From: Acidobacteriota bacterium | GTDB lineage: Bacteria > Acidobacteriota > Vicinamibacteria > Vicinamibacterales > 2-12-FULL-66-21 | NCBI GenBank assembly: GCA_046734955.1 | Contig: JBKPSH010000074.1 | Coordinates: forward strand, 8,698-72,697 | Direction of reading: 5' to 3' | DNA length: 64,000 nucleotides | Notes under the pieces: model-generated | What the model was told of the DNA's origin: nothing | Database searches by the model: none | The model's input: the letters and a program-made list of their open reading frames with translations, nothing else | Shown: positions 1,563-56,206 of the stretch, piece after piece | Layout of the letters: each line of letters begins with the position of its first letter | Position numbering within the stretch: the stretch's first letter is position 1 | Position numbers and translations under genes: made by a program

Positions 1563-4500
1563 GTGAGTCGACAGATTCTGCGCGTGCGCGTGCTCGCCTG
1601 GCTCGGCATTGGGGTGTGTCTCGTCGCGGGGCGAGTGCTCATCGCACAGGGGCCCGCCCAGGTCCCGCCGCTTCCGCCGCCTATCAATCAGTCCGACGAT
1701 CCCATCTTGAAGCCTTTCGTCTGGCGACCGATTGGTCCGGCGAGCATGGGCGGTCGCGTCGATGACATCGCTGTCGTCGAGAGCAATCCAAGCACGATCT
1801 ATCTCGGATTTGCGACCGGCGGAATCTGGAAGAGCACGAATAACGGGACGACATGGATGCCGATCTTCGATACGTATCCTGTCTCCTCAATTGGCGACAT
1901 CGCAATCGCGCCGTCGAACCCCGACATCGTTTACGTCGGCACCGGTGAGCCGAACAATCGTCAGAGTTCCTCGTTCGGCGCCGGCGTGTACAAGTCAATC
2001 GATGGCGGGAAGACCTTTCAGGAGGCTGGCCTGAAAGAAACGCAATCGATCGGCCGCATCGTCGTGCATCCCAAAGATCCGAACATTGCGTACGTCGCCG
2101 CCGTGGGACATCTCTTTGGCCCCAACAAGGAACGCGGTCTCTATAAGACGACCGACGGCGGAAAGACCTGGACCAATACGAAATTCATCGACGACAACAC
2201 GGGATTCACCGACGTCGTGATCGATCCAGGCAATCCGAACATGCTCATCGCTGCGTCGTATCAGCGGCGTCGCACGCCGTGGGGGTTCAACGGCGGCGGG
2301 CCGGGCAGTGGAATCTGGAAGACCACCGATGCCGGCAAGACATGGACGAAGCTCACCAACGGATTACCGAACAATCCGATCATCGGACGGATTGGGCTCG
2401 ACATCGCGCGCTCGAAACCATCGACAATTTACGCGTCGATCGAAGTTGGGCCGAGCGGTGGCACCGGAGCCGGCGTCAACGATGATGGAACGCTGGTGCC
2501 TCCCGGCCAGCGCGGAGGGGGCGGCGGTGGCGGAGGCTTCGGCGGCGGACGCGGTCAGGCTCCTCCGCCAGATCCCAACAAGAGCGGTGTGTGGCGATCG
2601 GATGATGGCGGAAAGAGCTGGCGCTTCCTGTCGAATCAAGGCGATCGGTGGATGTACTACAGCCAGATCCGTGTCGATCCCACTAATCCGGAGATCGCGT
2701 ATCAGGGCGGCGCGCCCTTTTTCAAGAGCACCGACGGTGGAAAAACCTGGAACACCGTTCAAGGCATTCCACATAGCGATCATCACGCGATCTGGATCGA
2801 TCCACGCGATGGCAAACACATCCTGCTTGGCAACGACGGCGGCTTCGACGTGACCTACGACCGCGGCGACACCTGGGAGTACGTCAACAACCTGCCGGTC
2901 GGGCAGTTCTACGCGATTAGCGCGGACATGCGCAAGCCGTATTACGTCTGCGGCGGATTACAAGACAACGGCAGCTGGTGCGGACCGAGCGCCACACGTA
3001 GCGCAAATGGAATTCTGAATTCCGATTGGTATCGCGTCGGCGGCGGCGACGGGTTCTACACGCAGAACGATCAATCGGACTGGACCGTCGTGTACTCCGA
3101 GTCGCAGGACGGCGCCACCAATCGCCTCGATTTACGGACAGGACGCAGCAACAGCATCCGGCCGCGTGGACCAGGACAGGCCGGACGCGGCGGTGGCGGC
3201 GCGCCGGCCGGCGAAACACCCGATCCAGCCGCCCAAGTGCCCGCGCCGTTTGGATTCGCCGGAAATCAAAACCCGAACGTGGTCCCGACGCCGCCGTCAG
3301 GCACGTACTACCGTTTCTACTGGAACACGCCGTTCATTCTTTCGCCACACAATCCGCGAACGATATTTCTCGGTGGTGACCGATTGTTCCGCTCGTACGA
3401 TCGGGGCGACACATGGGTGGCCTCTCCGGATCTGACGAAGAACATCGGCCGCAACGACCGTCCGATTCTCGGCGTCGACGGTTCAGCGCCGATGGCGTCG
3501 AAGCACGATGGCGCAGCGTCGTACAGCAACATCGTCACCATCGGCGAATCGCCGCTGGTGCCGGGCATCATCTGGGTGGGAACCAACGATGGCAATCTTC
3601 AAGTCAGCCGCGACAGCGGCAACACATGGAAGAACGTCGTCGACAAAGTGCCAGGCGTGGCGAAGGAGACGCACGTCTCGCGCGTCGAGCCATCACGCTA
3701 CGATGCCGGCACGTGTTACGTGACATTCGATGCGCATCGCACCGACGATCACAAGCCTTACGTTTTCCTGACGACAGACTTCGGTGAAACGTGGACGTCG
3801 ATCTCGTCGAATCTTCCCGAAGGAAACGTCAACGTCATTCGCGAAGATCCGAAGAACAAGAACCTCCTGTATCTCGGAACCGAGTACGCGTTCTACGTAT
3901 CGCTGAACCGCGGAAGAGAATGGAAGCGGTTCATGAACGGGATGCCGACCGTGCGCATCGACGACATCATGGTCCACCCGCGCGACAACGATCTGATCGT
4001 TGGCACGCACGGGCGAAGCATCTACATCATCGACGACATCACGGCGCTCCAGCAGCTGTCAGACACAACGACCGGGTCAGACGCGGCTTTGCTGGATATC
4101 CGCCCTGGCGTCTCGTGGGTGACCGACATCCAGAAGACTATCCTCACCGAGGGGGCGAAATCCTTCCGCGCGCAGAATCCGTCCCAGGGATCTGCGATCA
4201 GCTACTGGCTGAAGAGCGCTGCGACGTCAGACGTGCGGGTCACGATCAGCGACGTCACCGGCCGTGAGATCCGTACTCTGGTTGGGACGAAGAACGCCGG
4301 CCTCAATCGCGTGCAATGGGACCTACGCGCAGGCGGTGCAGGAGGTCGCGGACGCGGCCAGGGAGGCGGGGCTACTCCGCAGCCAACTGCTGCCGCCGAG
4401 GCCGGAGCACCAGTTGCGCAACCGGTGACACAACAACCGGCCGCGCAACAGCCTGCCGCGCCGGCCGCACCAGACGAAGGGGCGCGTGGAAGAGGAGCGC

Positions 4501-4670: not shown

Positions 4671-4762
4671 TTGGTGAATTGGTGAATTGGGCGACTCACT
4701 GACGCCGGGCGTCCTCAATTCACGATTCACCAACTCATAAATTCATCAATTCACCAATTCAT
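4671..4762. repeat. (GGTGAATT)n inverted-repeat hairpin between convergent genes (bidirectional terminator candidate)
   Basis: ttggtgaattggtgaattgg (4671-4690) is complementary to tcaattcacgattcaccaac (4715-4734). A further copy, tcaattcaccaattca (4746-4761), overlaps the stop of the minus-strand gene. The tract starts 1 nt after the stop at 4670. Confidence 0.7.
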
Positions 4763-7071: not shown

Positions 7072-8561
7072 AAAGGCAATCCGTTCTTTTACCTTTCCTT
7101 TTCCCTTTTGCCTTTTGCCTTTTCCCTTTCCTGTTACTTTGCACCCTCAATTCCGCCGGCTATCGCTACGGCGCCTCCGATCTCGCGTTCTACATCCCGG
7201 CGGCACTCGAACGGCTCGATCCGTCACTCTTCCCGCGGGACGGCGCGTTGATTGCGTCCCAGGCACGATTGACGATGATCGATGAGACGATCGCGGCGCT
7301 GTCGCGCGTCAGCGGACTCGGATTGCCGTCACTGTTCGCGACGTTATACGCGACGACGCTCGCGCTGCTGCTGGCCGGCGCACTTCTGCTTGGACGGTTC
7401 CTGTATCGGACCGAGGCGGCGGCGCTCGCATTCGTTGCCGCCCTGACCTTGCGCCACGCCATCGCGAAGTCGGGGACGAATACACTCGAGGGCTATTTCC
7501 ATCCGCGCCAACTCGCATTCAGTCTTGGGGTTCTGGCGCTGGTCGCACTGATGCAACAGCGCGTGCTCGTCAGCGCGGCGCTTGTCGTCGCCGGTGGTCT
7601 GCTTCATCCGACGACGGCGTTGTGGTTTTCGATCTGGATAGCGATTGCCGCGGCCGTGAACGATCGCCGGTGGCGGCTACCGATGATCCTTGTGGCAATC
7701 GCGGTGGTAATTGCAGCCGCATGGATGCTGGCGGCAGGACCGCTTGCGGGCCGGCTGGTCACGATGGATGACGAGTGGCTGGCGACGCTGGAGACCAAGG
7801 ATTATCTGTTCCCGCTCGAGTGGCCTCTGTATGCGTGGGGACTCAACCTCATTTATCCTCCGACCATTTTTTATATCTACAAACGGCGGTCGGCCATGGG
7901 CATTCTGGCGCCGGGGGAACGAGGATTGGTCTGGGGATGCCTGGCGCTCGTCGGCGTATTTGCAGTCGCGCTGCCGTTGAACGCGGCGCGACTCGCCCTG
8001 GTGATTCAACTCCAGGTACCGCGGGTGTTCTGGATGCTTGATTTTCTCGCCATTGCCTACCTGATCTGGTTGATCGCGGAAGACCTCAAGCCCTCGCCGC
8101 GGCGAGCGGGGATCGTCTGCCTCGTGATCGCGCTGGCATCGCTGACGCGCAGCGCGTACATCAAGTTCCTTAAGTTTCCAGATCGGCCAATCGCCGAAAT
8201 CGGCGTGCCCGACAACGACTGGGGGCGCGTGATGGCGTGGGTGCGCAGTACGCCTCACGACACCGGCTGGCTTGCTCACCCCGGACACGCCGTTCTGTAC
8301 GGAACGAGCGTCAGAGTTGCAGGGCAGCGCGACGTGTTTGTCGAAGGTATCAAGGACGCAGCAATTGGCATGTACGAACGCGACGTCGCCATCCGCACGC
8401 GCGATCGATTGCAAGAGCTGCGCGATTTCGACACGCTGACGCCCGAGCGCGCGACGTCGCTCGGCGCGCGCTATCAGATGGACTTTCTCGTTACGGGTCA
8501 AACTCTCGATCTTCCGGTGGCGTTCTCGAGCGGGCCACTGCGGGTCTATCGCCTGCGATGA
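7068..8561 (+). CDS. Polytopic integral membrane protein of unknown function
   Basis: 497-aa ORF with many hydrophobic segments. The first about 25 codons ([18 protein letters not shown]) are translated from the simple-sequence tract, so the true start is uncertain (alternative ATG near 7279). Confidence 0.6.
   Translation: MKRQSVLLPFLFPFAFCLFPFLLLCTLNSAGYRYGASDLAFYIPAALERLDPSLFPRDGALIASQARLTMIDETIAALSRVSGLGLPSLFATLYATTLALLLAGALLLGRFLYRTEAAALAFVAALTLRHAIAKSGTNTLEGYFHPRQLAFSLGVLALVALMQQRVLVSAALVVAGGLLHPTTALWFSIWIAIAAAVNDRRWRLPMILVAIAVVIAAAWMLAAGPLAGRLVTMDDEWLATLETKDYLFPLEWPLYAWGLNLIYPPTIFYIYKRRSAMGILAPGERGLVWGCLALVGVFAVALPLNAARLALVIQLQVPRVFWMLDFLAIAYLIWLIAEDLKPSPRRAGIVCLVIALASLTRSAYIKFLKFPDRPIAEIGVPDNDWGRVMAWVRSTPHDTGWLAHPGHAVLYGTSVRVAGQRDVFVEGIKDAAIGMYERDVAIRTRDRLQELRDFDTLTPERATSLGARYQMDFLVTGQTLDLPVAFSSGPLRVYRLR
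7092..7141. repeat. Pyrimidine-strand (CCTTTTS)n simple-sequence tract
   Basis: cctttccttttcccttttgccttttgccttttccctttcc lies directly after the DinB stop. It is the complement family of the GGSAAAA tracts at 21025, 23430 and 43479. Confidence 0.8.
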
Positions 8562-9544
8562 ACGATTACGTGCCCAAGCGTGGCCTGACGAACGGCCATC
8601 TCATGACAGTGTATTGCTGGGGAAAGCCGCGCAAGTTCCCGGCGTTACCCGCACCGACCGAACGCCACTTCGATACCGAACCCAAAACCCGCGTCCTCGC
8701 GCATTGCCATTGGCAACGCGATCCCGCCGCGCATCCGGCACTCATCGGCCTGCATGGTCTGGAGGGATCGAGCAGCGCGCACTACATGCGCGGCATGGCG
8801 GCGAAGGCCTACGGACGCGGATTCAACGTCCTCTTGCTCAATCAGCGCAATTGCGGCGGCACGGAATCGCTGTCCGCAGGGCTCTATCACTCGGGTCTCA
8901 CCGCGGATGCTGCCCACGTCATCAGCGAACTCCGACGCGACGGCATCGATCGCGTCGTCGTTGCCGGCTACTCGCTGGGAGGGAACCTGGCGCTCAAGCT
9001 CGCCGGCGACTACGGAAGCGCGCCACCGCCATCGCTGAAAGGCGTGTGTGCCGTGTCGCCCGTGATTGAGCTGGCCGAGTGTGTCAGAGCGCTCGACCGC
9101 CGTGAGAATTTCATTTACCAATGGAATTTTGTCAGAGGGCTGAAGGCGCGGATGCGCCGCAAAGCGGCCGCGCATCCGGGACGATTCCCGCTCGAACGGC
9201 TGTCGCAGGTGCGAACCGTTCGCCAATTCGATGAATACTTCACCGCACCGCACTTCGCGTTCGATGGCGCGGATGATTACTATTTTCGCGCGAGCGCGAT
9301 GCGCGTCGTCGATCGGATCCGCGTGCCGGCGCTCGTCATAACCGCCGAAGACGATCCGTTTGTCCCGGCTGAGATCTTTCGCGATCCACGCCTCCAAACC
9401 AATCCCCACATCAACCTCGTCGTCACCCGGCATGGGGGCCATTGCGGGTTCGTCGCCAATATGAACGGGGTGGACGACGGGTATTGGGCGGAGCGCCGGA
9501 TCGTTGAGTTTGCGGCCGCGGTGACGGAGAGCAGGAATCGCTGA
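8558..9544 (+). CDS. Alpha/beta hydrolase, YheT/ABHD1-3-like
   Basis: ORF track 8237..9544. ATG 8558 overlaps the upstream stop (ATGA). MNDYVPKRGLTNGHLMT..., GLEGSSSAHYMRG, nucleophile elbow GYSLGGN, C-terminal HGGHCGF. Confidence 0.8.
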   Translation: MNDYVPKRGLTNGHLMTVYCWGKPRKFPALPAPTERHFDTEPKTRVLAHCHWQRDPAAHPALIGLHGLEGSSSAHYMRGMAAKAYGRGFNVLLLNQRNCGGTESLSAGLYHSGLTADAAHVISELRRDGIDRVVVAGYSLGGNLALKLAGDYGSAPPPSLKGVCAVSPVIELAECVRALDRRENFIYQWNFVRGLKARMRRKAAAHPGRFPLERLSQVRTVRQFDEYFTAPHFAFDGADDYYFRASAMRVVDRIRVPALVITAEDDPFVPAEIFRDPRLQTNPHINLVVTRHGGHCGFVANMNGVDDGYWAERRIVEFAAAVTESRNR

Positions 9545-9737
9545 TCACTGATCACTGATCGTGAATCCCTTATCCTCGAATCGTCGAATCCCTAATCCTG
9601 GAATCGGCGAATCGCGCCATCGACATTCGATTCAGCGATTCGAGGATTCAAGGATTCATGGATCCACGGATTAGCGATTCGCGATCAGTGATTCAACGAT
9701 GAGCGATTCGCGATCAGTGACTAGTGATAAGGGATTA
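9541..9737. repeat. About 195-bp imperfect palindromic tract of short GATCAST / GAATCS units between convergent genes
   Basis: ctgatcactgatcactgatcg...gaatcccttatcctcgaatcg on the left. Right half carries the complements cgattcgaggattcaaggattca ... cgatcagtgactagtgataagggatt. Fills the whole gap between stops 9544 (+) and 9735 (-). Confidence 0.75.
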
Positions 9738-10438: not shown

Positions 10439-10476
10439 TCAATGTTCAATGTTCAATGTTCAATGTTCAGTGTTCG
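10439..10476. repeat. (CAATGTT)5 heptamer array, left inverted arm of four-helix-bundle cassette 1
   Basis: tcaatgttcaatgttcaatgttcaatgttcagtgttcgg. Lies between the DUF72 start and the stop of the four-helix-bundle gene, overlapping that stop at 10467-69. Confidence 0.85.
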
Positions 10477-10853
10477 GAATCCTGAGAGCCGCGGCCGGGA
10501 TTAGATTCGGCAGTCCTTATGATTCTCGTCAGAATTTTCAGGATTTGGTGGCACTCGTCAATAAGCGGTTCTGCCTGCGCTCTTATTGTCGGCTTGGCGA
10601 ACGCGATCAAGCGTAGCCAGTAGCGCGTCTCTGCCGACTCCTTCCGAGCGATGGCCCCCTTTCCAATGAAGTCACGTTTGGTCTGTCCGGCATCAGCTTC
10701 TTCGAGGTTTGCGCCGATTGACGTGCCTGCATCCAGCAATTGTGAGCCGAGTCGTCGGATGACGTAGTCTGATTGAGCCAAGAGCCGGCAAAAATCGATG
10801 ATTTTGCAAGCGAACGTAAATGTGCGTGGTTGAATGTCGTGCGGTCGGGACAT
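10467..10853 (-). CDS. Four-helix-bundle protein (23S rRNA intervening-sequence protein / Avd-like family)
   Basis: ORF track 10467..10973. ATG at 10853 gives a 128-aa protein. Family signature FTFACKIIDFCRLL...LGSQLLDAGTSIGANLEEA...RKESAETRYWLRLI. Confidence 0.85.
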   Translation of the reverse strand: MSRPHDIQPRTFTFACKIIDFCRLLAQSDYVIRRLGSQLLDAGTSIGANLEEADAGQTKRDFIGKGAIARKESAETRYWLRLIAFAKPTIRAQAEPLIDECHQILKILTRIIRTAESNPGRGSQDSEH

Positions 10854-11001: not shown

Positions 11002-11110
11002 CATTGAACATTGAGCATTGAACATTGAACATTGAGCATTGAACATTGAGCATTGAACATTGAGCATTGAACATTGAACATTGAGCATTGAACATTGAAC
11101 ATTGAGCATT
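11002..11110. repeat. (CATTGAR)~15 heptamer array, right inverted arm of cassette 1
   Basis: 109 bp of cattgaa/cattgag units, the reverse complement of the CAATGTT array at 10439-10476. Generates the spurious MFNVQCS ORFs. Confidence 0.9.
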
Positions 11111-21018: not shown

Positions 21019-21024
21019 CCGGAA

Positions 21025-21066
21025 GGCAAAAGGGAAAAGGGAAAGGGAAAAGACAGGAACAGGAAC
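21025..21066. repeat. Purine-strand (GGSAAAA)n simple-sequence tract between ADOP paralogs 4 and 5
   Basis: ggcaaaagggaaaagggaaagggaaaagacaggaacaggaac occupies most of the 53-bp gap. Confidence 0.8.
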
Positions 21067-21071
21067 TTGAC

Positions 21072-23429
21072 ATGACCGACATCCGTTACGCACTGCGGAC
21101 ACTGCTTCGCGCGCCTGGCTTCACCGTCGTCGCGATTCTGACGCTTGCGCTCGGCATCGGCGCGACGACCGCGATCTTCAGCGTCGTCAATGCCGTGCTG
21201 CTGCGACCGCTGCCCTACACCGATCCCGATCGACTCGTGATGACGCGGGGTTCGCTTGCCGACTTGCGCGATCTCGACGCGGCCAATCACTCGTTTGAAG
21301 AAATGGCAGTCTGGGCGTCGAACATGTACAACCTTCGCGTCGGCGACAACTCGGAACAGGTTCTGGCAGGCCAGGTCACACGCAATCTGCTGCCACTGCT
21401 GGGCGTTCAGCCGCTCATCGGACGCAATTTCACCGAAGAAGACGACCGCCAGGACACGGTCATTCTGGGCTACGGGCTGTGGCAGCGCCGGTTCGGCGGC
21501 GATCATCAGGTCATCGGAACAACAATCAATCTGAGCGGGACCACCTACACCGTCATCGGCATTACACCGCCATGGTTCCGGTTCCCTGACGCGACGTTTC
21601 AACTCTGGGCGCCGCTGAGCATGATTGACCGTACGGCACCCGAGCAGGCAAAGAATCGCGCATTTCGCATTTTCCGCGCGGTCGCCAGGTTGAAACCCGA
21701 GGTCAGCATCACGCAGGCGCAATCGGAAATCCGATCGTTCAGCGAGCGACTGGCGCGCGAGTTTCCGGCGACCAACGAAGGCGTCACCTACGAGGTGCAG
21801 ATGCTCTCGGAACAGCTGGTGCAAAATGCGCGGCCGGTTTTGCGCGTACTCCTCGGCACGGTGCTGCTCCTGCTCCTGATTGCGTGCGCGAACGTCGCCA
21901 ACCTGATGCTTGCGCGAGCGACAGTCCGCGAGCGCGAAATGGCGATACGGGCGGCTCTTGGTGCCGGGCGTGCGCGACTGGTTCGTCTCCTGGTGACGGA
22001 AAGTCTGGTCCTTGCCGTCCTTGGCGGCACAGTCGGAGTGATCGTAGCGATGTGGGGAGTCGACTTGCTGCCGGCGGTGCTCGAAGCTCGTGTGCCGCGT
22101 GCGGATGGAATCCGAATCGATGCCGTCGTCCTGCTGTTCTCCGCATGTGCCACGCTCATCACCGGACTCATCTTCGGTCTGACGCCGGCGATGCAGACGG
22201 CTGGCGGACACGCCGAATCACTCAAAGACAGCGGCCGGAGTGTTGCGGGAACCGTTCGCGGTCGACGCTTGCGTCAGACGATCGCTGTTGTCGAAGTCGC
22301 ACTTGCCGTGATCGTTCTGCTCGGTGCCGGCCTGCTCGTCCGCAGCTTTCTGACGCTGAGTGGAACCGATCCAGGGTTCACGCCGACGCAACTGTTGTCG
22401 TTCAACGTTCAATTCATTTCGCTGCCGGACGTCGCCGCCCGTGGCCAGGTCGCCGCTACCTTGATCGATCGATTGAGCCACGTGCCGGGAGTCGAAGCGG
22501 CCGGCGCGGCGACCGGCTTCCCCAGCGTTACCGCGCAGCGCGGAACACGCTTCGCCATCGACGGCCGAACGTTGACCGCCGACGAGGACTCTGCCTATTT
22601 CATCGCCGCGACACCGGGATACTTCAATGCGCTTCGCGCGCCGGTTCTTCAGGGCCGCGCAATTGATGCGACCGACCGCGCCGGAGGCGAACCGATCGCG
22701 GTCATCAACCGCACATTCGCGTCGCAGTTCTTTCCGGCGGGAGATGCGGTCGGGCATCGGCTCCGTATCATCAACCCCGAACAGTCGGCGGAATGGCGAA
22801 CGATCGTGGGCGTTGTCGGCGACATCAAGTACCGCGGATTGCACGAGGACACGCCGCCTACTCTCTACACACCATTCGCGCAGACACCGTTCATGTGGCT
22901 CTACGTCATGGTCAGAACACCGGGCAGGCTCGACTCCTTATCGGCGACATTGCGCTCACTGGTCCCCGCGGTGGAGCCGTCACTGACCGCCGGAAACATC
23001 AGGCCGATGACCGACGTGATCGCGCAGGGTATCTCCGGACCGCGTTTTAACATGCTGCTCGTGTCCGCGTTTGCCGGACTCGCACTGCTTTTGTCGTCTA
23101 TCGGGATTTACGGAGTGATCGCGTACTCGGTCGCACAACGATCCCAGGAGATCGGGGTTCGCATGGCGTTGGGCGCCGCGCGTGGCGACATCCTGCGACT
23201 CGTCATTCGTGAAGGCGTCGTGATTGCGCTTGGCGGAATTGCTCTCGGCCTCGTCGGCTCATTCGCGTTGGGGCGGGTCATGACCGGGTTGCTCGTCGGC
23301 GTATCCGCGCGCGACCCGCTCACGTTCGCAGTTGGCGCGGTCGCGCTCTTCGTGATCGCGCTCCTCGCCGGTTACGCGCCTGCGCTTCGCGCTTCCCGCA
23401 TCGCGCCGTCTGATGCATTGCGCGCGTAG
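21072..23429 (+). CDS. ADOP family permease, paralog 5
   Basis: 785 aa. [33 protein letters not shown]...; same two-FtsX architecture. Confidence 0.85.
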
Positions 23430-23467
23430 AAAGGGAAAAGGCACAAGGGAAAAGGGAAAAGGAAAGG
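23430..23467. repeat. 38-bp purine-rich left inverted repeat of four-helix-bundle cassette 2
   Basis: aaagggaaaaggcacaagggaaaagggaaaaggaaagg starts at the base after the ADOP5 stop. Its reverse complement matches 24046-24083 at 33 of 38 positions (my manual alignment). Confidence 0.85.
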
Positions 23468-23599
23468 TAACAAGGCAGCAAGCCAAAAAGAGCGACCTTG
23501 CCACCCAGCCAGAGGTTGCATTTACTGCGACGTCAGCAGAAACGACCTCGAAATTCCTCGTGAATCTTGAGCGGAACGGCGCGTGCATCGTTGTGCGAC

Positions 23600-24028
23600 A
23601 TGGCTCAGAAACCGTACGACTTTCGCCAGCGCTCGTTTCTGTTCGCGTGCGACATCGTCGCATTTGCGCGAATCGTCGCCGCCCGAGGTTACATCTTCGG
23701 CCGACTCGCGACGCAGTTGGTCAAGTCTGGTGCATCCGTCGGCGCAAATCTGGAAGAAAGTGTCGACGGACAATCGAAACCCGACTTCACTTCGAAGCAA
23801 TCGATCGCATTGAAAGAGGCGCGTGAAGCGCGATTCTGGCTTCGGCTCATCGCCGCGAGCGAACCCTCACTCGCCCCGCGCGCTCAGCCACTCATTACCG
23901 AAGCATCAGAATTCGTCGCGATGCTGACGGCATCTGTGAAGACCGCCAAATCCAACCCGTACCGAGGAGCAAGGCGAGCTGCAATCGGCTGCCTTGTCCT
24001 CTTTGTGGTTCTTCTGCTGTGGCAGTAA
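23600..24028 (+). CDS. Four-helix-bundle protein (23S rRNA intervening-sequence protein / Avd-like family), second copy
   Basis: ORF track 23567..24028. ATG 23600 gives MAQKPYDFRQRSFLFACDIVAFARIV...LATQLVKSGASVGANLEES...LKEAREARFWLRLI. Has a hydrophobic C-terminal tail. Confidence 0.85.
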   Translation: MAQKPYDFRQRSFLFACDIVAFARIVAARGYIFGRLATQLVKSGASVGANLEESVDGQSKPDFTSKQSIALKEAREARFWLRLIAASEPSLAPRAQPLITEASEFVAMLTASVKTAKSNPYRGARRAAIGCLVLFVVLLLWQ

Positions 24029-24045
24029 TGCCCGCTCGGCTTTGA

Positions 24046-24083
24046 CCTTTCCTTTTCCCTTGTGCCTTTTCCCTTGTCCCTTT
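24046..24083. repeat. 38-bp pyrimidine-rich right inverted repeat of cassette 2
   Basis: cctttccttttcccttgtgccttttcccttgtcccttt, complementary to 23430-23467. Confidence 0.85.
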
Positions 24084-24134
24084 CGGGGGCGAGGTCATTC
24101 CGTCGAGCTGAGCGTTCTCCTGCGACGGCGCTTT

Positions 24135-28155: not shown

Positions 28156-28803
28156 ATGAGCCTTCGAACTTGGATCGCGGCGCTCGCTCTAGGTGCCTTG
28201 ACGGTTGCGCCCGCAGCTTCGGCACAGACGAGCACGGCCGCGAAAAACGACAGCGCGATCAAAGGTCGGGTTGAAGCGCGTTTGAACAATGTGGAATCGC
28301 TGAAGGACGAACACATCACCGTGTCGGTCGATAACGGTGTCGTCACGCTGAAGGGAGACGTCCGCACCGCAGCCGACCGAGAGCGTGCCGCGGAGCTGGC
28401 GAAGGTTCCCGGCGTAACCAGCGTCGAAAACAAGCTGGAAGTGGAAGGGTCCGAGAAGGGTGTGGCATCGAAGACCAAGGACGCGACGACCAAGGGCGCG
28501 GAGAAGACCAAAGACGCGACGGTCAAGGGCGCGAAGAAGACAGGCGAAGCGACCAAGGACGTGGCTGGAACGACCGGTGAAGTGATTAACGACGCGTGGA
28601 TCACGTCGAAGATCAGCGCCGACTTCGTCAACGAAGACACGCTCAAGGGCAGCGACATCAACGTCGACACCAAGGACCATGTGGTGACGTTGAAGGGCAC
28701 AGTGGCGTCGGCGGCTGGAAAAGCCCGCGCGGAAGAGATCGCGAAGACGACCAAGGGCGTGAAGCGCGTCAACAACACGCTGACGATCGGACCGAAGAAG
28801 TAA
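28156..28803 (+). CDS. BON-domain protein (OsmY-like, two BON domains)
   Basis: Signal peptide, then two BON units (HITVSVDNGVVTLKGDVRT...VPGVTSVENKLEV and DINVDTKDHVVTLKGTVAS...KGVKRVNNTLTI). They are joined by a KTKDAT-type repeat linker. Confidence 0.8.
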   Translation: MSLRTWIAALALGALTVAPAASAQTSTAAKNDSAIKGRVEARLNNVESLKDEHITVSVDNGVVTLKGDVRTAADRERAAELAKVPGVTSVENKLEVEGSEKGVASKTKDATTKGAEKTKDATVKGAKKTGEATKDVAGTTGEVINDAWITSKISADFVNEDTLKGSDINVDTKDHVVTLKGTVASAAGKARAEEIAKTTKGVKRVNNTLTIGPKK

Positions 28804-40228: not shown

Positions 40229-40379
40229 ATCCGTGTTCATTGTCGGGATCCGTTGGCCGGGATCCGGGATCCGATCCGTGTGAATCCGTGTTCTTCCGTG
40301 ATCCGTCTTTTTCCGTGGTCCATGTTCTTCCGTGTTCTTCCGTGGCCCGTGTTTTTCCGTGGCCCGTGTTCTTCCGTGG
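40229..40379. repeat. Degenerate CCGTG-TTCTT-CCGTGG tandem array in a divergent promoter region
   Basis: gatccgtgttcat...gaatccgtgttcttccgtgatccgtctttttccgtggtccatgttcttccgtgttcttccgtggcccgtgtttttccgtggcccgtgttcttccgtgg. Same family as 48712-48853. Confidence 0.85.
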
Positions 40380-40504
40380 TCAGGATACGGCGGCCCCGCG
40401 CGCGAATCCCAGTGTTTCCGGTGAACGCCCCCACCCTGCCGGTAAACGGCGTCTTGTCCACCGTAGCCATGCGCGACGGCGGATGTTTGGTAACATGGCC
40501 GCTC

Positions 40505-41974: not shown

Positions 41975-42015
41975 CCTTTCCCTTTTGCCTTTTGCCTTTT
42001 CCCTTTTGCCTTTTT
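41975..42015. repeat. Pyrimidine-strand (CCTTTTS)n tract between convergent genes
   Basis: cctttcccttttgccttttgccttttcccttttgccttttt, complementary to the purine tract at 43479-43512. Confidence 0.8.
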
Positions 42016-42743: not shown

Positions 42744-43478
42744 ATGGCTTTTTTTTCGAAGGCGCCGCAACCGGCAGTAACCGCGCAGAATGAGGTAGCC
42801 CTTGCGCCGAACGCGCTGATCGCGCTTCGCAATATCGAGAAATCGTACGCCCACGGCACCAGCCGCACCTACGTGTTGCGTCGCATCAACCTCGACGTCA
42901 AGGAAGGCGAGTTCATCTCGATTATGGGACCGTCGGGCGCCGGCAAGTCGACGCTGCTACACATCATCGGCATGCACGACAGTGCATGGACGGGCGAGTA
43001 CTACTTCCTCGATCAACCGGTACACAAACTGGCGGCGAAGGATCGCGCCAAACTGCACAAGCAGTACATCGGCTTTGTATTTCAAAGCTACCACTTGCTC
43101 GATCACCTGACGGTATATGAGAACCTCGACATCCCCCTCTCGTACCGCGACATCAAGAAATCGGAGCGCGAGAGCATGGTGTGCGACATTCTCGATCGCT
43201 TCGCAATCGTCGGCAAAAAAGATCTGTATCCGAATCAGCTCTCAGGTGGCCAGCAGCAGCTGGTCGCCGTCGCCCGCGCGGTGATCTCGAATCCGAAAGT
43301 CATTCTCGCCGATGAACCGACCGGCAACCTGCATACCAGTCAGGGCAAAGAGATCATGGAGCTGTTCAAGAAACTGAATGAAGCTGGGACGACGATCATC
43401 CAGGTCACGCACTCGGAGACGAATGCGGCGTATGGAAGCCGGGTCGTGAATTTGAGAGACGGATGGGTCGTCGATTAA
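42744..43478 (+). CDS. ABC transporter ATP-binding protein, MacB/LolD/FtsE-type (no adjacent permease)
   Basis: Walker [10 protein letters not shown], signature [14 protein letters not shown], Walker [12 protein letters not shown]. Matches the ATPase subfamily that normally partners FtsX-domain permeases. Confidence 0.85.
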
Positions 43479-43550
43479 GGGAAAAGGCAAAAGGCAAAAG
43501 GCAAAAGGGACAAGGAAAAACGTAAATTTTCCCTTGTCCCCTTGCCTTTC
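43479..43550. repeat. Purine-strand (GGCAAAA)n tract followed by a hairpin, between convergent genes
   Basis: gggaaaaggcaaaaggcaaaaggcaaaa, then gggacaaggaaaa-acgtaaa-ttttcccttgtccc (stem with one bulge). Abuts both stops (43478 and 43550). Confidence 0.8.
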
Positions 43551-43930
43551 TACCAGCGCGGTTCTTTGCGCCGACCGCCGCTGAAGTCTCCATCGTCGTA
43601 GCTGCGATTGCCGCCGCCACCACCGCCGCCGCCGCGATAACCGCCGCCGCCCCCGCGGCCGCCTCCGCCGAAGCCGCCTTCAGGCTTCGGACGCGCTTCG
43701 TTCACAACCAGCGCGCGTCCCTCCATCTGCTGTTCGTGGAACTGGCTGATCGCTTTTTGTGCTTCCTCGTCCGTGCCCATCTCAACGAAGGCGAAGCCGC
43801 GAGCTCGACCGGTCGCCATGTCGCGCATCACGCGGACGCTGTCGACCTTGCCGACGCGGCTGAACATTTCGGTGAGCTGATCTTCGGTCGCGGAGTACGG
43901 AAGGTTGCCGACGTAGAGTCTCCTGCCCAT
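43550..43930 (-). CDS. RNA-binding protein with RRM (RNP-1/RNP-2) domain and Gly/Arg-rich tail
   Basis: RNP-2 LYVGNL, RNP-1 RGFAFVEM, C-terminal GGFGGGGRGGGGGYRGGGG. Confidence 0.9.
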   Translation of the reverse strand: MGRRLYVGNLPYSATEDQLTEMFSRVGKVDSVRVMRDMATGRARGFAFVEMGTDEEAQKAISQFHEQQMEGRALVVNEARPKPEGGFGGGGRGGGGGYRGGGGGGGGNRSYDDGDFSGGRRKEPRW

Positions 43931-46123: not shown

Positions 46124-46159
46124 AATTGGTGAATTGGTGAATTCACCAATTCACCAATT
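46124..46159. repeat. Perfect 36-bp palindrome of (GGTGAATT) units
   Basis: aattggtgaattggtgaattcaccaattcaccaatt, centred on GAATTC. Overlaps the stop of the 46143 gene and lies 15 nt upstream of the next minus-strand start. Confidence 0.9.
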
Positions 46160-48711: not shown

Positions 48712-48853
48712 GGTCCGTGTTAATCCGTGTTTTTCCGTGGCCCGTGAGTCCGTGTTCTTCCGTGGCCCGTGTTAGTCCGTGTTCTTCCGTGGCCCGGGTT
48801 TTTCCGTGGCCCGTGTGAGTCCGTGTTCTTCCGTGGCCCGTGTTAGTCCGTGG
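48712..48853. repeat. CCGTG-TTCTT-CCGTGG-type tandem array in the SPFH leader; its first 29 nt are the left inverted repeat
   Basis: Begins ggtccgtgttaatccgtgtttttccgtgg (48712-40), followed by about 6 more degenerate units up to the RBS (ggagg at 48860-64). Confidence 0.85.
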
Positions 48854-48873
48854 CGGCGAGGAGGTCGCACACC

Positions 48874-49748: not shown

Positions 49749-49961
49749 GTGGCCGAGCGGAAACCGTTCCTGCTGCGAATCGATCGCGAGATTCTCGACG
49801 CCGTTCAGCGCTGGGCAGACGATGATCTGCGCAGCCTGAACGGCCAGATCGAGTTTCTCCTGCGCCGGGCGCTGAAGGAAGGTGGACGCGAACTGAAAGA
49901 CGCGAGCCACGGAAGAACACGGATCAACACGGACCAGAGGGAGAAGAAGGAGAAAAGCTAG
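49749..49961 (+). CDS. Small ribbon-helix-helix (Arc/MetJ-like) DNA-binding protein
   Basis: ORF track 49689..49961. GTG 49749 lies 5 nt after the SPFH stop. Beta-strand PFLLRIDREI followed by two helices, LDAVQRWADDD and LNGQIEFLLRRAL. Confidence 0.6.
   Translation: MAERKPFLLRIDREILDAVQRWADDDLRSLNGQIEFLLRRALKEGGRELKDASHGRTRINTDQREKKEKS
49907..49935. repeat. Right inverted repeat of the SPFH-RHH cassette (inside the 3' end of the RHH ORF)
   Basis: The reverse complement of ccacggaagaacacggatcaacacggacc is ggtccgtgttgatccgtgttcttccgtgg, matching 48712-48740 at 27 of 29 positions. Confidence 0.85.
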
Positions 49962-52307: not shown

Positions 52308-52357
52308 CCGAAGGGCCCTTCGGCCTTCGGCGCCTTCCCTTTTCCCTTTTGCCTTTT
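52308..52357. repeat. 16-bp palindrome CCGAAGGGCCCTTCGG followed by a (CCTTTTS)n tract
   Basis: ccgaagggcccttcgg at 52308-23, then ccttcccttttcccttttgcctttt at 52333-57. Inside a 417-bp divergent intergenic region. Confidence 0.75.
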
Positions 52358-52651
52358 CGATGTCCGTCGACGGGGACGGCGCGATACCGGAGGATGACAG
52401 CGCGCCACAGTGGTTCGTGGTGTGATTGCGCGGTTTACTCGAATTCGCCACGCAGCACAGCAGGTACATGGCTTGCTTCGGGCCCCCTGGCGATCGTTTC
52501 GCTTCGTTGCCGGCACCCGATTCCGGGGACGCGAACGTTGCGACAACCGTCTCAGCTACAGTAACATCGGCGACGAGCAGCTGACGATCTACGTCGCCGC
52601 GTTCGCAGGAGCGGACTGGCAGTCTGTCTCGCTGTGCTTCCGAGGTGAAAT

Positions 52652-55869: not shown

Positions 55870-56124
55870 GTGTTACTGGCCGTGCCTGAGAAACGCCGCT
55901 GCAACGATCTCGTCGGGCTTCTCGCGGATTTCGTCGAGCATCATCTGCCGCCTCAGGTACACGCCGATCTCGAGCGCCACCTCGCCGCGTGTCCCCGCTG
56001 CGTTGCTCAGTTGAAAACCTACAAGTCGACGGTCTCGCTGCTCCGTTCCATCAAGGAAGACGACTTACCGCCAGAGCTTCGATGCACGCTCAAGGCATTT
56101 GTGGACCGGAATTGTAAAAACTGA
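55870..56124 (+). CDS. Small zf-HC2 (ZAS-type) putative anti-sigma factor, no adjacent sigma gene
   Basis: 84 aa containing HLAACPRC (H-x3-C-x2-C). Alternative (GTG) start. Confidence 0.55.
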   Translation: MLLAVPEKRRCNDLVGLLADFVEHHLPPQVHADLERHLAACPRCVAQLKTYKSTVSLLRSIKEDDLPPELRCTLKAFVDRNCKN

Positions 56125-56206
56125 AATTGCTGAATGTTGATTGCTGAGTGCTGATTGAACGCGACCCGTCAATCAGCACTCAGAATTCAGCAATCAGCAT
56201 TTTCAG
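56125..56206. repeat. Inverted repeat of TGCTGAK heptamers (hairpin, terminator candidate)
   Basis: Perfect 15-bp stem ctgagtgctgattga (56144-58) / tcaatcagcactcag (56169-83) with a 10-nt loop, flanked by further imperfect heptamer pairing. Starts 1 nt after stop 56124. Confidence 0.75.

Follow-up and report, generated by a model that had tools for sequence, protein, structure and literature searches.

Four-helix-bundle protein genes bracketed by inverted heptamer arrays in an acidobacterial contig: candidate intervening-sequence-type cassettes outside rRNA

Examination of a 64,000-nt stretch of an Acidobacteriota contig (JBKPSH010000074.1), hereafter the window, reveals a 654-bp unit next to the ADOP permease gene ADOP5 in which a gene for a four-helix-bundle (4HB) protein is enclosed by two inverted tandem arrays of a 7-nt unit. 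Complementary arms of this kind are enriched about 50-fold at 4HB genes over other open reading frames (ORFs) of the same loci, and they recur at the second 4HB gene of the window, on plasmids and in Bacteroides. With a little better than even confidence, the 654-bp unit (cassette 1) can be regarded as one copy of a widespread cassette of the intervening sequence (IVS) type that resides outside rRNA and whose arms would form an RNase III-type stem in read-through RNA.

Bracketed 4HB genes in the window and their homologs

The ADOP5 stop codon (TAG, 23427-23429) is followed, at the first base beyond it, by the purine tract that opens the 5' arm of cassette 1, exactly as described in the initial annotation. 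A repeat search places the two arms at 23429-23468 and 24045-24084 (40 nt, 88% complementary, separated by 576 nt), in agreement with the 33 of 38 complementary positions that had been counted by manual alignment; if the register is shifted by two units, a 28-nt stretch reaches 96% complementarity. Both arms are tandem arrays of the unit AAGGSAM in about five copies (period 7 or 14 in Tandem Repeats Finder); they have in common the rare variant GGCAC/GTGCC (unit AAGGCAC), and one unit of slippage separates them. The protein encoded between the arms matches PF05635 (E-value 2.4e-11, 44.2 bits, above the curated cut-off of 33.8) and TIGR02436 (63.1 bits, cut-off 24), and its closest solved structure is 2RLD (chain A, E-value 7.6e-14 with the single protein and 2e-24 with a profile), a PDB entry with 5 chains. 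Accordingly, the assignment to the 4HB family and the order of inverted repeat, leader of about 130 nt, ORF and inverted repeat hold as first proposed. A stem joining the arms around the ORF, considered possible from the outset, is present in both the minimum free energy (MFE) and the centroid structures predicted for the RNA of 23400-24110 (-294.3 kcal/mol, z-score -5.1).

The only other 4HB gene of the window encodes a protein with 47% identity to the first one (PF05635, E-value 8.6e-15, 55.3 bits; TIGR02436, 76.7 bits; cut-offs 33.8 and 24, respectively) and is bracketed as well, so that two of the two 4HB genes in the window are flanked by arms, each by a different heptamer unit. The arms of this second cassette, (TCAATGT)x5.3 and (CATTGAA)x15.6, are complementary at 95% over 37 nt, the 5' array being enlarged to 15.6 units. 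The first unit of the 3' arm contains the TGA stop codon of the ORF, and this arm finishes 5 nt short of the ATG of a DUF72 gene. Here too the predicted RNA structure includes the arm-arm stem in MFE and centroid folds (z-score -4.4). The second bracketed gene and the 7-nt periodicity of the arms, their most distinctive feature, go beyond what the initial annotation had recorded. An Rfam search matches no rRNA or other family in the 64-kb window, so that both cassettes are located outside 23S rRNA, and no defense-system profile of PADLOC matches either 4HB protein. The GC content of the cassettes (0.56 and 0.51) is below that of the window (0.617), and the GC content at third codon positions is below that of the neighboring genes in both cases (e.g., 0.64 for the 4HB gene of cassette 1 against 0.74 for ADOP5).

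To place these two genes in a broader context, 80 genome loci were taken from an alignment of homologs in contigs of one genome per species, 74 of which are scorable. The survey covers the clade with at least about 38% identity to the two window proteins, which is a part of PF05635, and includes Acidobacteriota, Chloroflexota, Desulfobacterota, Verrucomicrobiota, Planctomycetota, Cyanobacteria, Bacteroidota, Nitrospirota, Gammaproteobacteria and other groups. Start codons were picked by rule, neighboring gene calls are ORF-based, and the score is that of an alignment of the 350 nt upstream of the ORF to the reverse complement of the 250 nt downstream. An inverted-repeat score of at least 14 is found in 54 of the 74 4HB loci (73%) compared to 5 of 372 other ORFs of 100-400 aa from the same loci (1.3%; Fisher p 1e-46); shifted geometry yields 0.4% (n=257) and shuffled flanks 0% (n=222). 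The preferential flanking of 4HB genes by complementary arms, on which the initial annotation had staked its interpretation, is thereby borne out. If the arms are allowed to overlap the ends of the ORF, 8 further loci reach this score.

Of the 59 scoring arms, 57 have a period of 7; the number of units has a median of 4.4 for 5' and 3' arms alike and peaks narrowly at 4.3-4.7. The units themselves vary by locus, but K-K-N-W-R-A-A can be recognized as a loose consensus (6.5 bits, compared to 4.9 +/- 0.12 after shuffling). The arms are tightly packed between genes: the median gap is 16 nt from the 5' arm to the start codon and 9 nt from the stop codon to the 3' arm, and the outer edges are at median distances of 2 and 8 nt from the neighboring genes. 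The density of heptamer arrays is 2.3 per kb within 250 nt of the 4HB ORF and falls to 0.24 per kb in the remainder of these loci.

Several other candidate patterns in these loci were rejected. The array density in 4HB loci compared to loci with DUF72 genes (0.168 and 0.067 per kb) is a poor contrast, being just 2.5-fold, and the DUF72 genomes may hold 4HB genes elsewhere. The units do not appear to be chosen for stop codons in all frames (a stop is present in 33 of 55 5' units, compared to 36 +/- 2.4 after shuffling) or for start codons (ATG in 18, against 12.7 +/- 3.1, which is no departure from expectation). The near-identical cyanobacterial copies L064, L071 and L074 were considered as true 23S IVSs, but Rfam places them next to tRNA genes, outside rRNA.

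The bracket is found again in two independent sets of homologs. A tblastn search of plasmids gives 24 records, and all 12 copies that were examined (4 from Nostoc and the others from Anabaena, Dolichospermum, Euhalothece, Pseudanabaena, Bernardetia, Chondrinema, Treponema and Monoglobus) have inverted heptamer arms, with scores of 19-34.5; the shifted controls are at about 8-12 and are higher only where the shifted geometry still overlaps nearby arrays. The 2RLD protein of Bacteroides thetaiotaomicron can be traced, via a 98% identical protein, to gut-metagenome contigs, where araD and araA enclose the gene and the arms are (AATTGAC)x4.4 and (ATTGTCA)x4.4. A second Bacteroides copy, between genes for an aminotransferase and 3-deoxy-D-arabino-heptulosonate 7-phosphate (DAHP) synthase, has the same AATTGAC-type unit. 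The Xanthomonas structure 2GSC is not reached by the sequence profile.

Cassettes wedged into operons are represented by L172, L174 and L182 (between cas2 and cas1 or csx2 and cas1), L183 (hsdS and hsdR), L181 (adaptor and permease of a resistance-nodulation-division, or RND, system) and L184 (araD and araA). At the cas-gene junctions (csx2/cas1, cas2/cas1), the 4HB gene is on the opposite strand in two loci. In L184, inverted units (AATTGTC and so forth; 1438-1500) directly follow the 5' arm, so that two alternative structures are conceivable, one with local pairing of this arm and one in which it pairs with the distant 3' arm. In L176 (955-1851), a 76-aa fragment annotated as DNA cytosine methyltransferase terminates in the 5' arm and a 92-aa hypothetical ORF begins right after the 3' arm; this cassette may have split a methyltransferase gene.

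Within cassette 1, the pyrimidine-rich DNA at 23988-24028, which encodes the hydrophobic C-terminal tail of the 4HB protein (…AIGCLVLFVVLLLWQ), resembles decayed units of the 3' arm and pairs with an inner extension of the 5' arm (23463-23479). The ORF seems to have expanded into an older part of the array, and the 4HB ORFs of L003, L012 and L021 likewise run into the 3' arm.

Table 1. Cassettes, solo arrays and ORF-less hairpins of the window
Feature	Coordinates	Strand	Description
5' arm, cassette 1	23430..23468	+	tandem heptamers AAGGGAA/AAGGCAC/AAGGAAA, ~5.4 units
Leader, cassette 1	23469..23599	+	131 nt
4HB protein gene, cassette 1	23600..24028	+	142 aa, PF05635/TIGR02436
3' arm, cassette 1	24045..24084	+	complementary array CCTTTTC/CCTTGTG/CCTTGTC
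5' arm, cassette 2	11002..11110	-	15.6 units AATGYTC
Second 4HB gene, cassette 2	10467..10853	-	128 aa; PF05635, TIGR02436
3' arm, cassette 2	10439..10475	-	5.3 units (GAACATT on minus strand)
Solo AAGGSAA array	7086..7140	-	
Solo AAGGSAA array	21023..21052	+	ADOP4 stop to ADOP5 start
Solo AAGGSAA array	41977..42014	-	convergent gene junction
Short solo AAGGSAA array	52335..52358	-	
ORF-less AAGGSAA hairpin	43477..43548		between convergent genes; long purine arm, 10-nt loop, short pyrimidine arm
ORF-less hairpin	56121..56206		TTGCTGA-type heptamer arms; 38-nt arms, 87% complementary, 10-nt loop

Gain, loss and copying of cassettes and arrays

The cassette behaves as a discrete unit, the arms, leader and ORF of which move together and which can be gained or lost, or persist for a long time, because some orthologous loci are devoid of it and a cassette of the same type as cassette 1 is found in a different context. 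In loci L081, L083 and L167, where the ADOP5 ortholog is 67-84% identical, the cassette directly follows the ADOP5 stop codon, and L166 and L168-L170 have the same layout. Relatives that carry the 4HB gene at this site (L081-L083, L166-L170) also carry the arms, so that the gene without arms, an outcome that would have spoken against the initial annotation, is not what these loci contain. The orthologous cassettes at ADOP5 consist of an AAGGGAA/AAGGGAC unit in variable copy number and a homologous leader; in L081 and L082, the 4HB proteins are identical and yet the 3' arms have about 9 and 6 units, respectively. Conserved blocks of the leader are common to these cassettes and to the copy in L171.

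Locus L164 is orthologous on both sides (69% identity for ADOP5, 55% for p206 and 80% for the sortilin-like protein) and has neither the cassette nor any arrays, with merely 12 nt between the convergent stop codons. On another contig, with 89% identical ADOP5, the gap is 141 nt and there is no 4HB gene among the gene calls, which are all that this comparison covers. In L164 (1128-3490), the gene calls split ADOP5 into two overlapping parts (474 and 329 aa), which points to a frameshift or an assembly error.

For cassette 2, none of the 80 loci with a DUF72 neighbor gene has a 4HB gene. The closest of these, L084 (DUF72 protein 92% identical, synteny over 6 kb, about 77-80% nucleotide identity), contains a single direct array, (AATGTTC)x4.7, adjoining the DUF72 ATG and no 4HB cassette. 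The window has the same left flank and then 15.6 units, the leader, the ORF and the inverted array, i.e., about 640 bp in addition. The single array of L084 suggests that an array already in place may be the target of insertion.

Presence in distinct contexts is exemplified by L171, whose 4HB protein shares 72% identity with the one from cassette 1; this locus has arms and leader of the cassette 1 type and is located upstream of a DUF72 ortholog (77% identical), beside a different ADOP paralog. The cassettes of L017 and L022 show 88% DNA identity, and their flanks are unrelated. A large number of other close pairs are simply orthologous loci, the cassette and the flanks having diverged alike. 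Across the cassettes, the identity of the proteins is correlated with that of the units (rho -0.25, permutation p 0.002).

One of the two options offered in the initial annotation was a small cassette bounded by terminal inverted repeats (TIRs) and devoid of a transposase of its own. The absence of the unit from L164 and L084 and its occurrence in another context in L171 fit this description, but no target-site duplication is detectable, that is, there is no direct repeat at the junctions of cassette 1, cassette 2 or the orthologs when compared to the empty sites L164 and L084. Neither window cassette adjoins a gene for a transposase, an integrase or a reverse transcriptase; the neighbors of the window 4HB genes encode ADOP permeases, p206, a sortilin-like protein and DUF72, cassette 1 being flanked by an ADOP permease gene on one side and a convergent protein-coding gene on the other. 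No candidate for a partner transposase, such as a transposase associated with repetitive extragenic palindromes (RAYT), is identified in the window, which is only partly annotated for transposases.

Permutation of the unit order in the 3' arm reduces the complementarity of the two arms (mean z-score 2.6; in 12 of 29 loci fewer than 5% of the permutations reach the observed value). The arms are mirror copies of each other, beyond being two arrays of one unit family.

Arrays of the same units also occur apart from 4HB genes. The sequence AAGGGAAAAGG, with at most one mismatch, is found 27 times in the window against 0.39 expected, and Table 1 includes four solo AAGGSAA arrays and an ORF-less hairpin of this unit, besides a second hairpin with TTGCTGA-type arms. 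The objection raised in the initial annotation, that such purine tracts could be a common feature of gene ends, is correct insofar as tracts do stand alone elsewhere in the window, but fails for the inverted pair, which is specific to 4HB genes. The solo array between ADOP4 and ADOP5 is absent from the orthologous L081 and L083, where these two genes overlap or are 26 nt apart; thus, solo arrays are likewise gained and lost. The AAGGSAA arrays at 41977-42014 and 43477-43526 were considered as the arms of a larger cassette and are treated as solo, given their opposite polarity (pyrimidine arm first) and location at two separate convergent junctions.

Hairpins or palindromes with 8-nt units (TTGGTGAA / TTCACCAA) are present at 4671-4762 and 46124-46159, the latter being a perfect 36-nt palindrome. 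A compound short-repeat hairpin (9537-9737) lies downstream of DUF72; L084 has, at the matching position (3190-3400), a hairpin with a different unit (AACGGAGN), so that the arms of these hairpins turn over quickly at a conserved position. A separate repeat family with 10-, 17- or 27-nt units (TCCGTGTTCT, CCGTGGC) is found at 40285-40381, 48714-48854 and 49892-49936; the pair 48763-48807 / 49892-49936 (45 nt, 84% complementary) encloses an SPFH/Band-7 gene and a small ribbon-helix-helix gene. The in-frame tandem repeats in coding regions at 757-882, 28469-28553 and 43604-43678 have no connection with the heptamer arrays; they comprise GGCGGN repeats of Gly-rich type, one repeat of 33 nt and, within the Gly-rich tail of an RNA-binding protein, a GCC run. 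In the cassettes and in the ORF-less hairpins alike, the first arm is purine- or G-rich. A purine-rich arm 5' of the ORF was rejected as an orientation rule: an inverted repeat is identical when read from either strand, so that the purine-first order is a polarity of the repeat and not a position relative to the gene.

Possible mechanisms

An IVS-type cassette that is a substrate of RNase III is favored because the window unit has the anatomy of the Coxiella burnetii IVS and is found outside rRNA. In the 23S rRNA of C. burnetii, the IVS contains a homologous S23p ORF within a 28-bp terminal stem that RNase III cuts in vitro, and its 5' end comprises 2-3 tandem GACAGAT heptamers and one degenerate copy, in strain-variable number; cleavage occurs where the first repeat starts (PMC4990558). 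By analogy, a cassette such as those in the window would be transcribed by read-through from the neighboring gene, its arms would pair into a stem of about 30-40 bp in the read-through RNA, and RNase III would cut this stem as it does in Coxiella. The cassette RNA would thereby be released from the host message, which could make an insertion inside an operon tolerable; the flush fit of cassettes between araD and araA, the RND adaptor and permease, hsdS and hsdR, csx2 and cas1, or cas2 and cas1 would be explained because the host message would be freed. The complementarity of the arms would be maintained largely by copying from arm to arm at the DNA level, via slippage and template switching.

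Several observations weigh against this scenario. Among the mismatches between arms, G:T and T:G (42) are as frequent as A:C and C:A (43), i.e., there is no excess of wobble pairs, so that pairing in the sense-strand RNA is not visibly under selection; the complementarity, we infer, is renewed by DNA-level copying between the arms and not by selection on single RNA base pairs. Co-orientation with the neighboring genes is 79% upstream and 67% downstream, against a baseline of 67% in the same loci (p 0.07 and 1.0); co-orientation was accordingly rejected as a sign of read-through, being strong against an expectation of 50% and not against that baseline. About 4-5 of the 80 loci remain armless under the looser geometry. 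The cleavage of the window cassettes by RNase III is itself suggested by analogy only. A promoter scan finds no sigma-70-like promoter in the 131-nt leader of cassette 1, but this conserved leader could hold a promoter of a kind outside the scan, which would yield a 4HB mRNA without the 5' arm. Finally, the same units also form solo arrays and hairpins without an ORF, so that the arrays may have a role that is independent of the ORF.

The equality of the two mismatch classes speaks in favor of a bracket that functions in DNA. Under this alternative, which we consider possible although rather unlikely as the principal explanation, the arms are TIRs or hairpin sites for a recombinase or transposase acting in trans, the 4HB gene is cargo or an accessory, and the RNA stem is a by-product; models would be MITEs (miniature inverted-repeat transposable elements), repetitive extragenic palindromic (REP) sequences with their RAYTs, the ends of IS200/IS605 elements and the attC sites of integrons, and such an element is compatible with the IVS-type cassette. 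Clean presence and absence at orthologous sites, the occurrence of the same cassette with its arms in unrelated contexts and the GC content below that of the host are all in line with a mobile element, and the mirrored unit variants of the two arms are those that strand-switch copying predicts. In addition, ORF-less arrays away from 4HB ORFs match the unit of the local cassette in 33% of the cases, against 5.7% for the cassettes of other loci, and of 15 close array pairs away from 4HB ORFs, 10 are inverted and none is direct, with about 4.4 units per arm, as in the cassettes, and loops of 12-93 nt. Against a DNA-level element stand the lack of transposase, integrase or reverse transcriptase genes beside either window cassette and of target-site duplications at the junctions; the wide differences between arm sequences, which, despite the loose unit consensus, are hard to fit to a single sequence-specific enzyme; and the many close pairs that are vertically kept orthologous loci, with the cassette and the flanks diverging at equal rates.

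A more doubtful proposal is that the protein and the repeat form a functional pair, with a 4HB pentamer binding heptamer arrays in RNA or DNA at approximately one subunit per unit and thereby either regulating its own expression or creating and spreading heptamer arrays and hairpins throughout the genome. The peak at 4.3-4.7 units per arm would suit a pentamer, given the five chains of 2RLD and the homopentamer formed by a Xanthomonas homolog (PMC4990558), and arrays of a cassette's own unit are scattered in its vicinity. Also in favor of such a pair, the related Avd protein of diversity-generating retroelements (DGRs) is able to bind both nucleic acid and a reverse transcriptase. The similarity of proteins also tracks that of units, but this correlation is explained equally well by co-inheritance of the gene with its arms. 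Moreover, the Coxiella S23p protein is apparently not made even though the IVS RNA is processed (PMC4990558), and the approximately 186 arrays per Xanthomonas genome (PMC4692102) are too many for a few 4HB genes unless these act in trans.

In a broader and rather speculative extension, to which we give little weight, 4HB cassettes and ORF-less heptamer hairpins would be a single cross-phylum family of selfish elements, in which the cassette is autonomous, the pentamer recognizes about 4-5 heptamers, and solo arrays and short hairpins are non-autonomous derivatives or footprints. If true, this would account for the rank of tandem heptamers as the commonest periodic repeat between prokaryotic genes, as well as for the 4HB genes wedged in rRNA and in cas, restriction-modification and metabolic operons.

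Coincidence, whereby arrays and hairpins are generic intergenic features such as terminators or simple repeats and the 4HB gene merely happens to lie between two of them, could draw on the AAGGSAA arrays that follow other window genes, on the possibility to read each arm of cassette 1 as a purine array downstream of a convergent gene, and on the arrays in loci without 4HB genes (0.067 per kb), but it is highly improbable in view of the roughly 50-fold enrichment, the array density near the ORF compared to elsewhere (2.3 against 0.24 per kb), the replication in all 12 plasmid copies and in Bacteroides, the absence of both arrays from the empty orthologous site L164, and the joint movement of arms and ORF.

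Implications and relation to known systems

The PF05635/TIGR02436 family is large and includes solved structures, but to our knowledge has no known function outside DGRs, and the ORF-carrying IVSs of 23S rRNA have been regarded as an oddity of rRNA since 1993. The bracket described here links this unexplained protein family to the equally unexplained excess of heptamers between bacterial genes. If the IVS-type interpretation is true, the cassette is a general element that places itself flush between genes, and the IVS of rRNA is only the landing site known best. The apparent link between 4HB genes and cas or restriction loci may then reflect tolerance to insertion rather than function, and cassettes wedged in defense loci are a possible reason why the family was scored as CRISPR-associated. 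Flanking heptamer arrays provide a simple signature for the annotation of 4HB cassettes and may explain some split or truncated neighboring genes. The locus in B. thetaiotaomicron that encodes the 2RLD protein between araD and araA makes the question testable in a model organism.

The 4HB genes have been noticed earlier in insertions in the rRNA genes of candidate phyla radiation (CPR) bacteria and inside cas loci (PMC3936711). In the literature covered, which excludes most subscription journals, no description was found of 4HB genes outside rRNA that are bracketed by inverted heptamer arrays, nor any link between the heptamer excess and the PF05635/TIGR02436 family.

The closest counterparts are the IVSs of 23S rRNA in Leptospira and Coxiella, with the S23p (23S_rRNA_IVP) ORF. 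Like the cassettes, these carry a PF05635 ORF and a terminal complementary stem of about 28-40 bp and show a patchy distribution suggestive of horizontal spread. The window cassettes differ in that they lie between protein-coding genes and not in helix 25 or 45 of 23S rRNA, that both arms are full heptamer arrays, and that the cut halves would have no rRNA scaffold by which they are held together, excision being something that we only infer here.

Intergenic heptamer repeats have been reported in several groups. The GGGAATC arrays of Xanthomonas mostly have four units, form 70-75 convergent pairs per genome and have been read as G-quadruplexes (PMC4692102); other examples are the TAACTGA repeats (PMC4679880) and the STRR (short tandemly repeated repetitive) sequences of cyanobacteria, and a global excess of intergenic heptamers in prokaryotes has been described as unexplained (SPADE preprint, 10.1101/309039). 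These repeats resemble the arms of 4HB cassettes in the 7-nt unit, the number of about 4 units, the location near the 3' end of the upstream ORF, the inverted pairs and the variable copy number. The difference is that they were reported without an enclosed gene and interpreted as G-quadruplexes, translational signals or phase-variation sites; none of the three publications (PMC4692102, PMC4679880, 10.1101/309039) links heptamer repeats to 4HB genes.

Similarity to MITEs, REP sequences and bacterial interspersed mosaic elements (BIMEs) is also apparent, these being short, non-autonomous, intergenic inverted-repeat or hairpin elements, present or absent among relatives and including versions without an ORF, whereas the arms of 4HB cassettes are 7-nt tandem arrays instead of unique TIRs and the cargo is a conserved ORF that does not encode a transposase. 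Integron cassettes likewise combine a small, apparently promoterless ORF with a structured repeat and are co-oriented inside transcription units, but the 4HB ORF is flanked by two arms where integron cassettes have one 3' attC site, and neither an integrase nor an array of cassettes is involved. The DGR protein Avd belongs to the same superfamily and has a pentameric four-helix-bundle fold (PMC10053308), but there is no reverse transcriptase and no template/variable repeat pair beside the window genes, and the proteins fall in the non-DGR group of TIGR02436. Taken together, the ORF family, the IVS layout and the intergenic heptamers are all known and, a prior description being possible, what appears to be new is their combination in an IVS-type element that resides outside rRNA and has heptamer arrays for arms.

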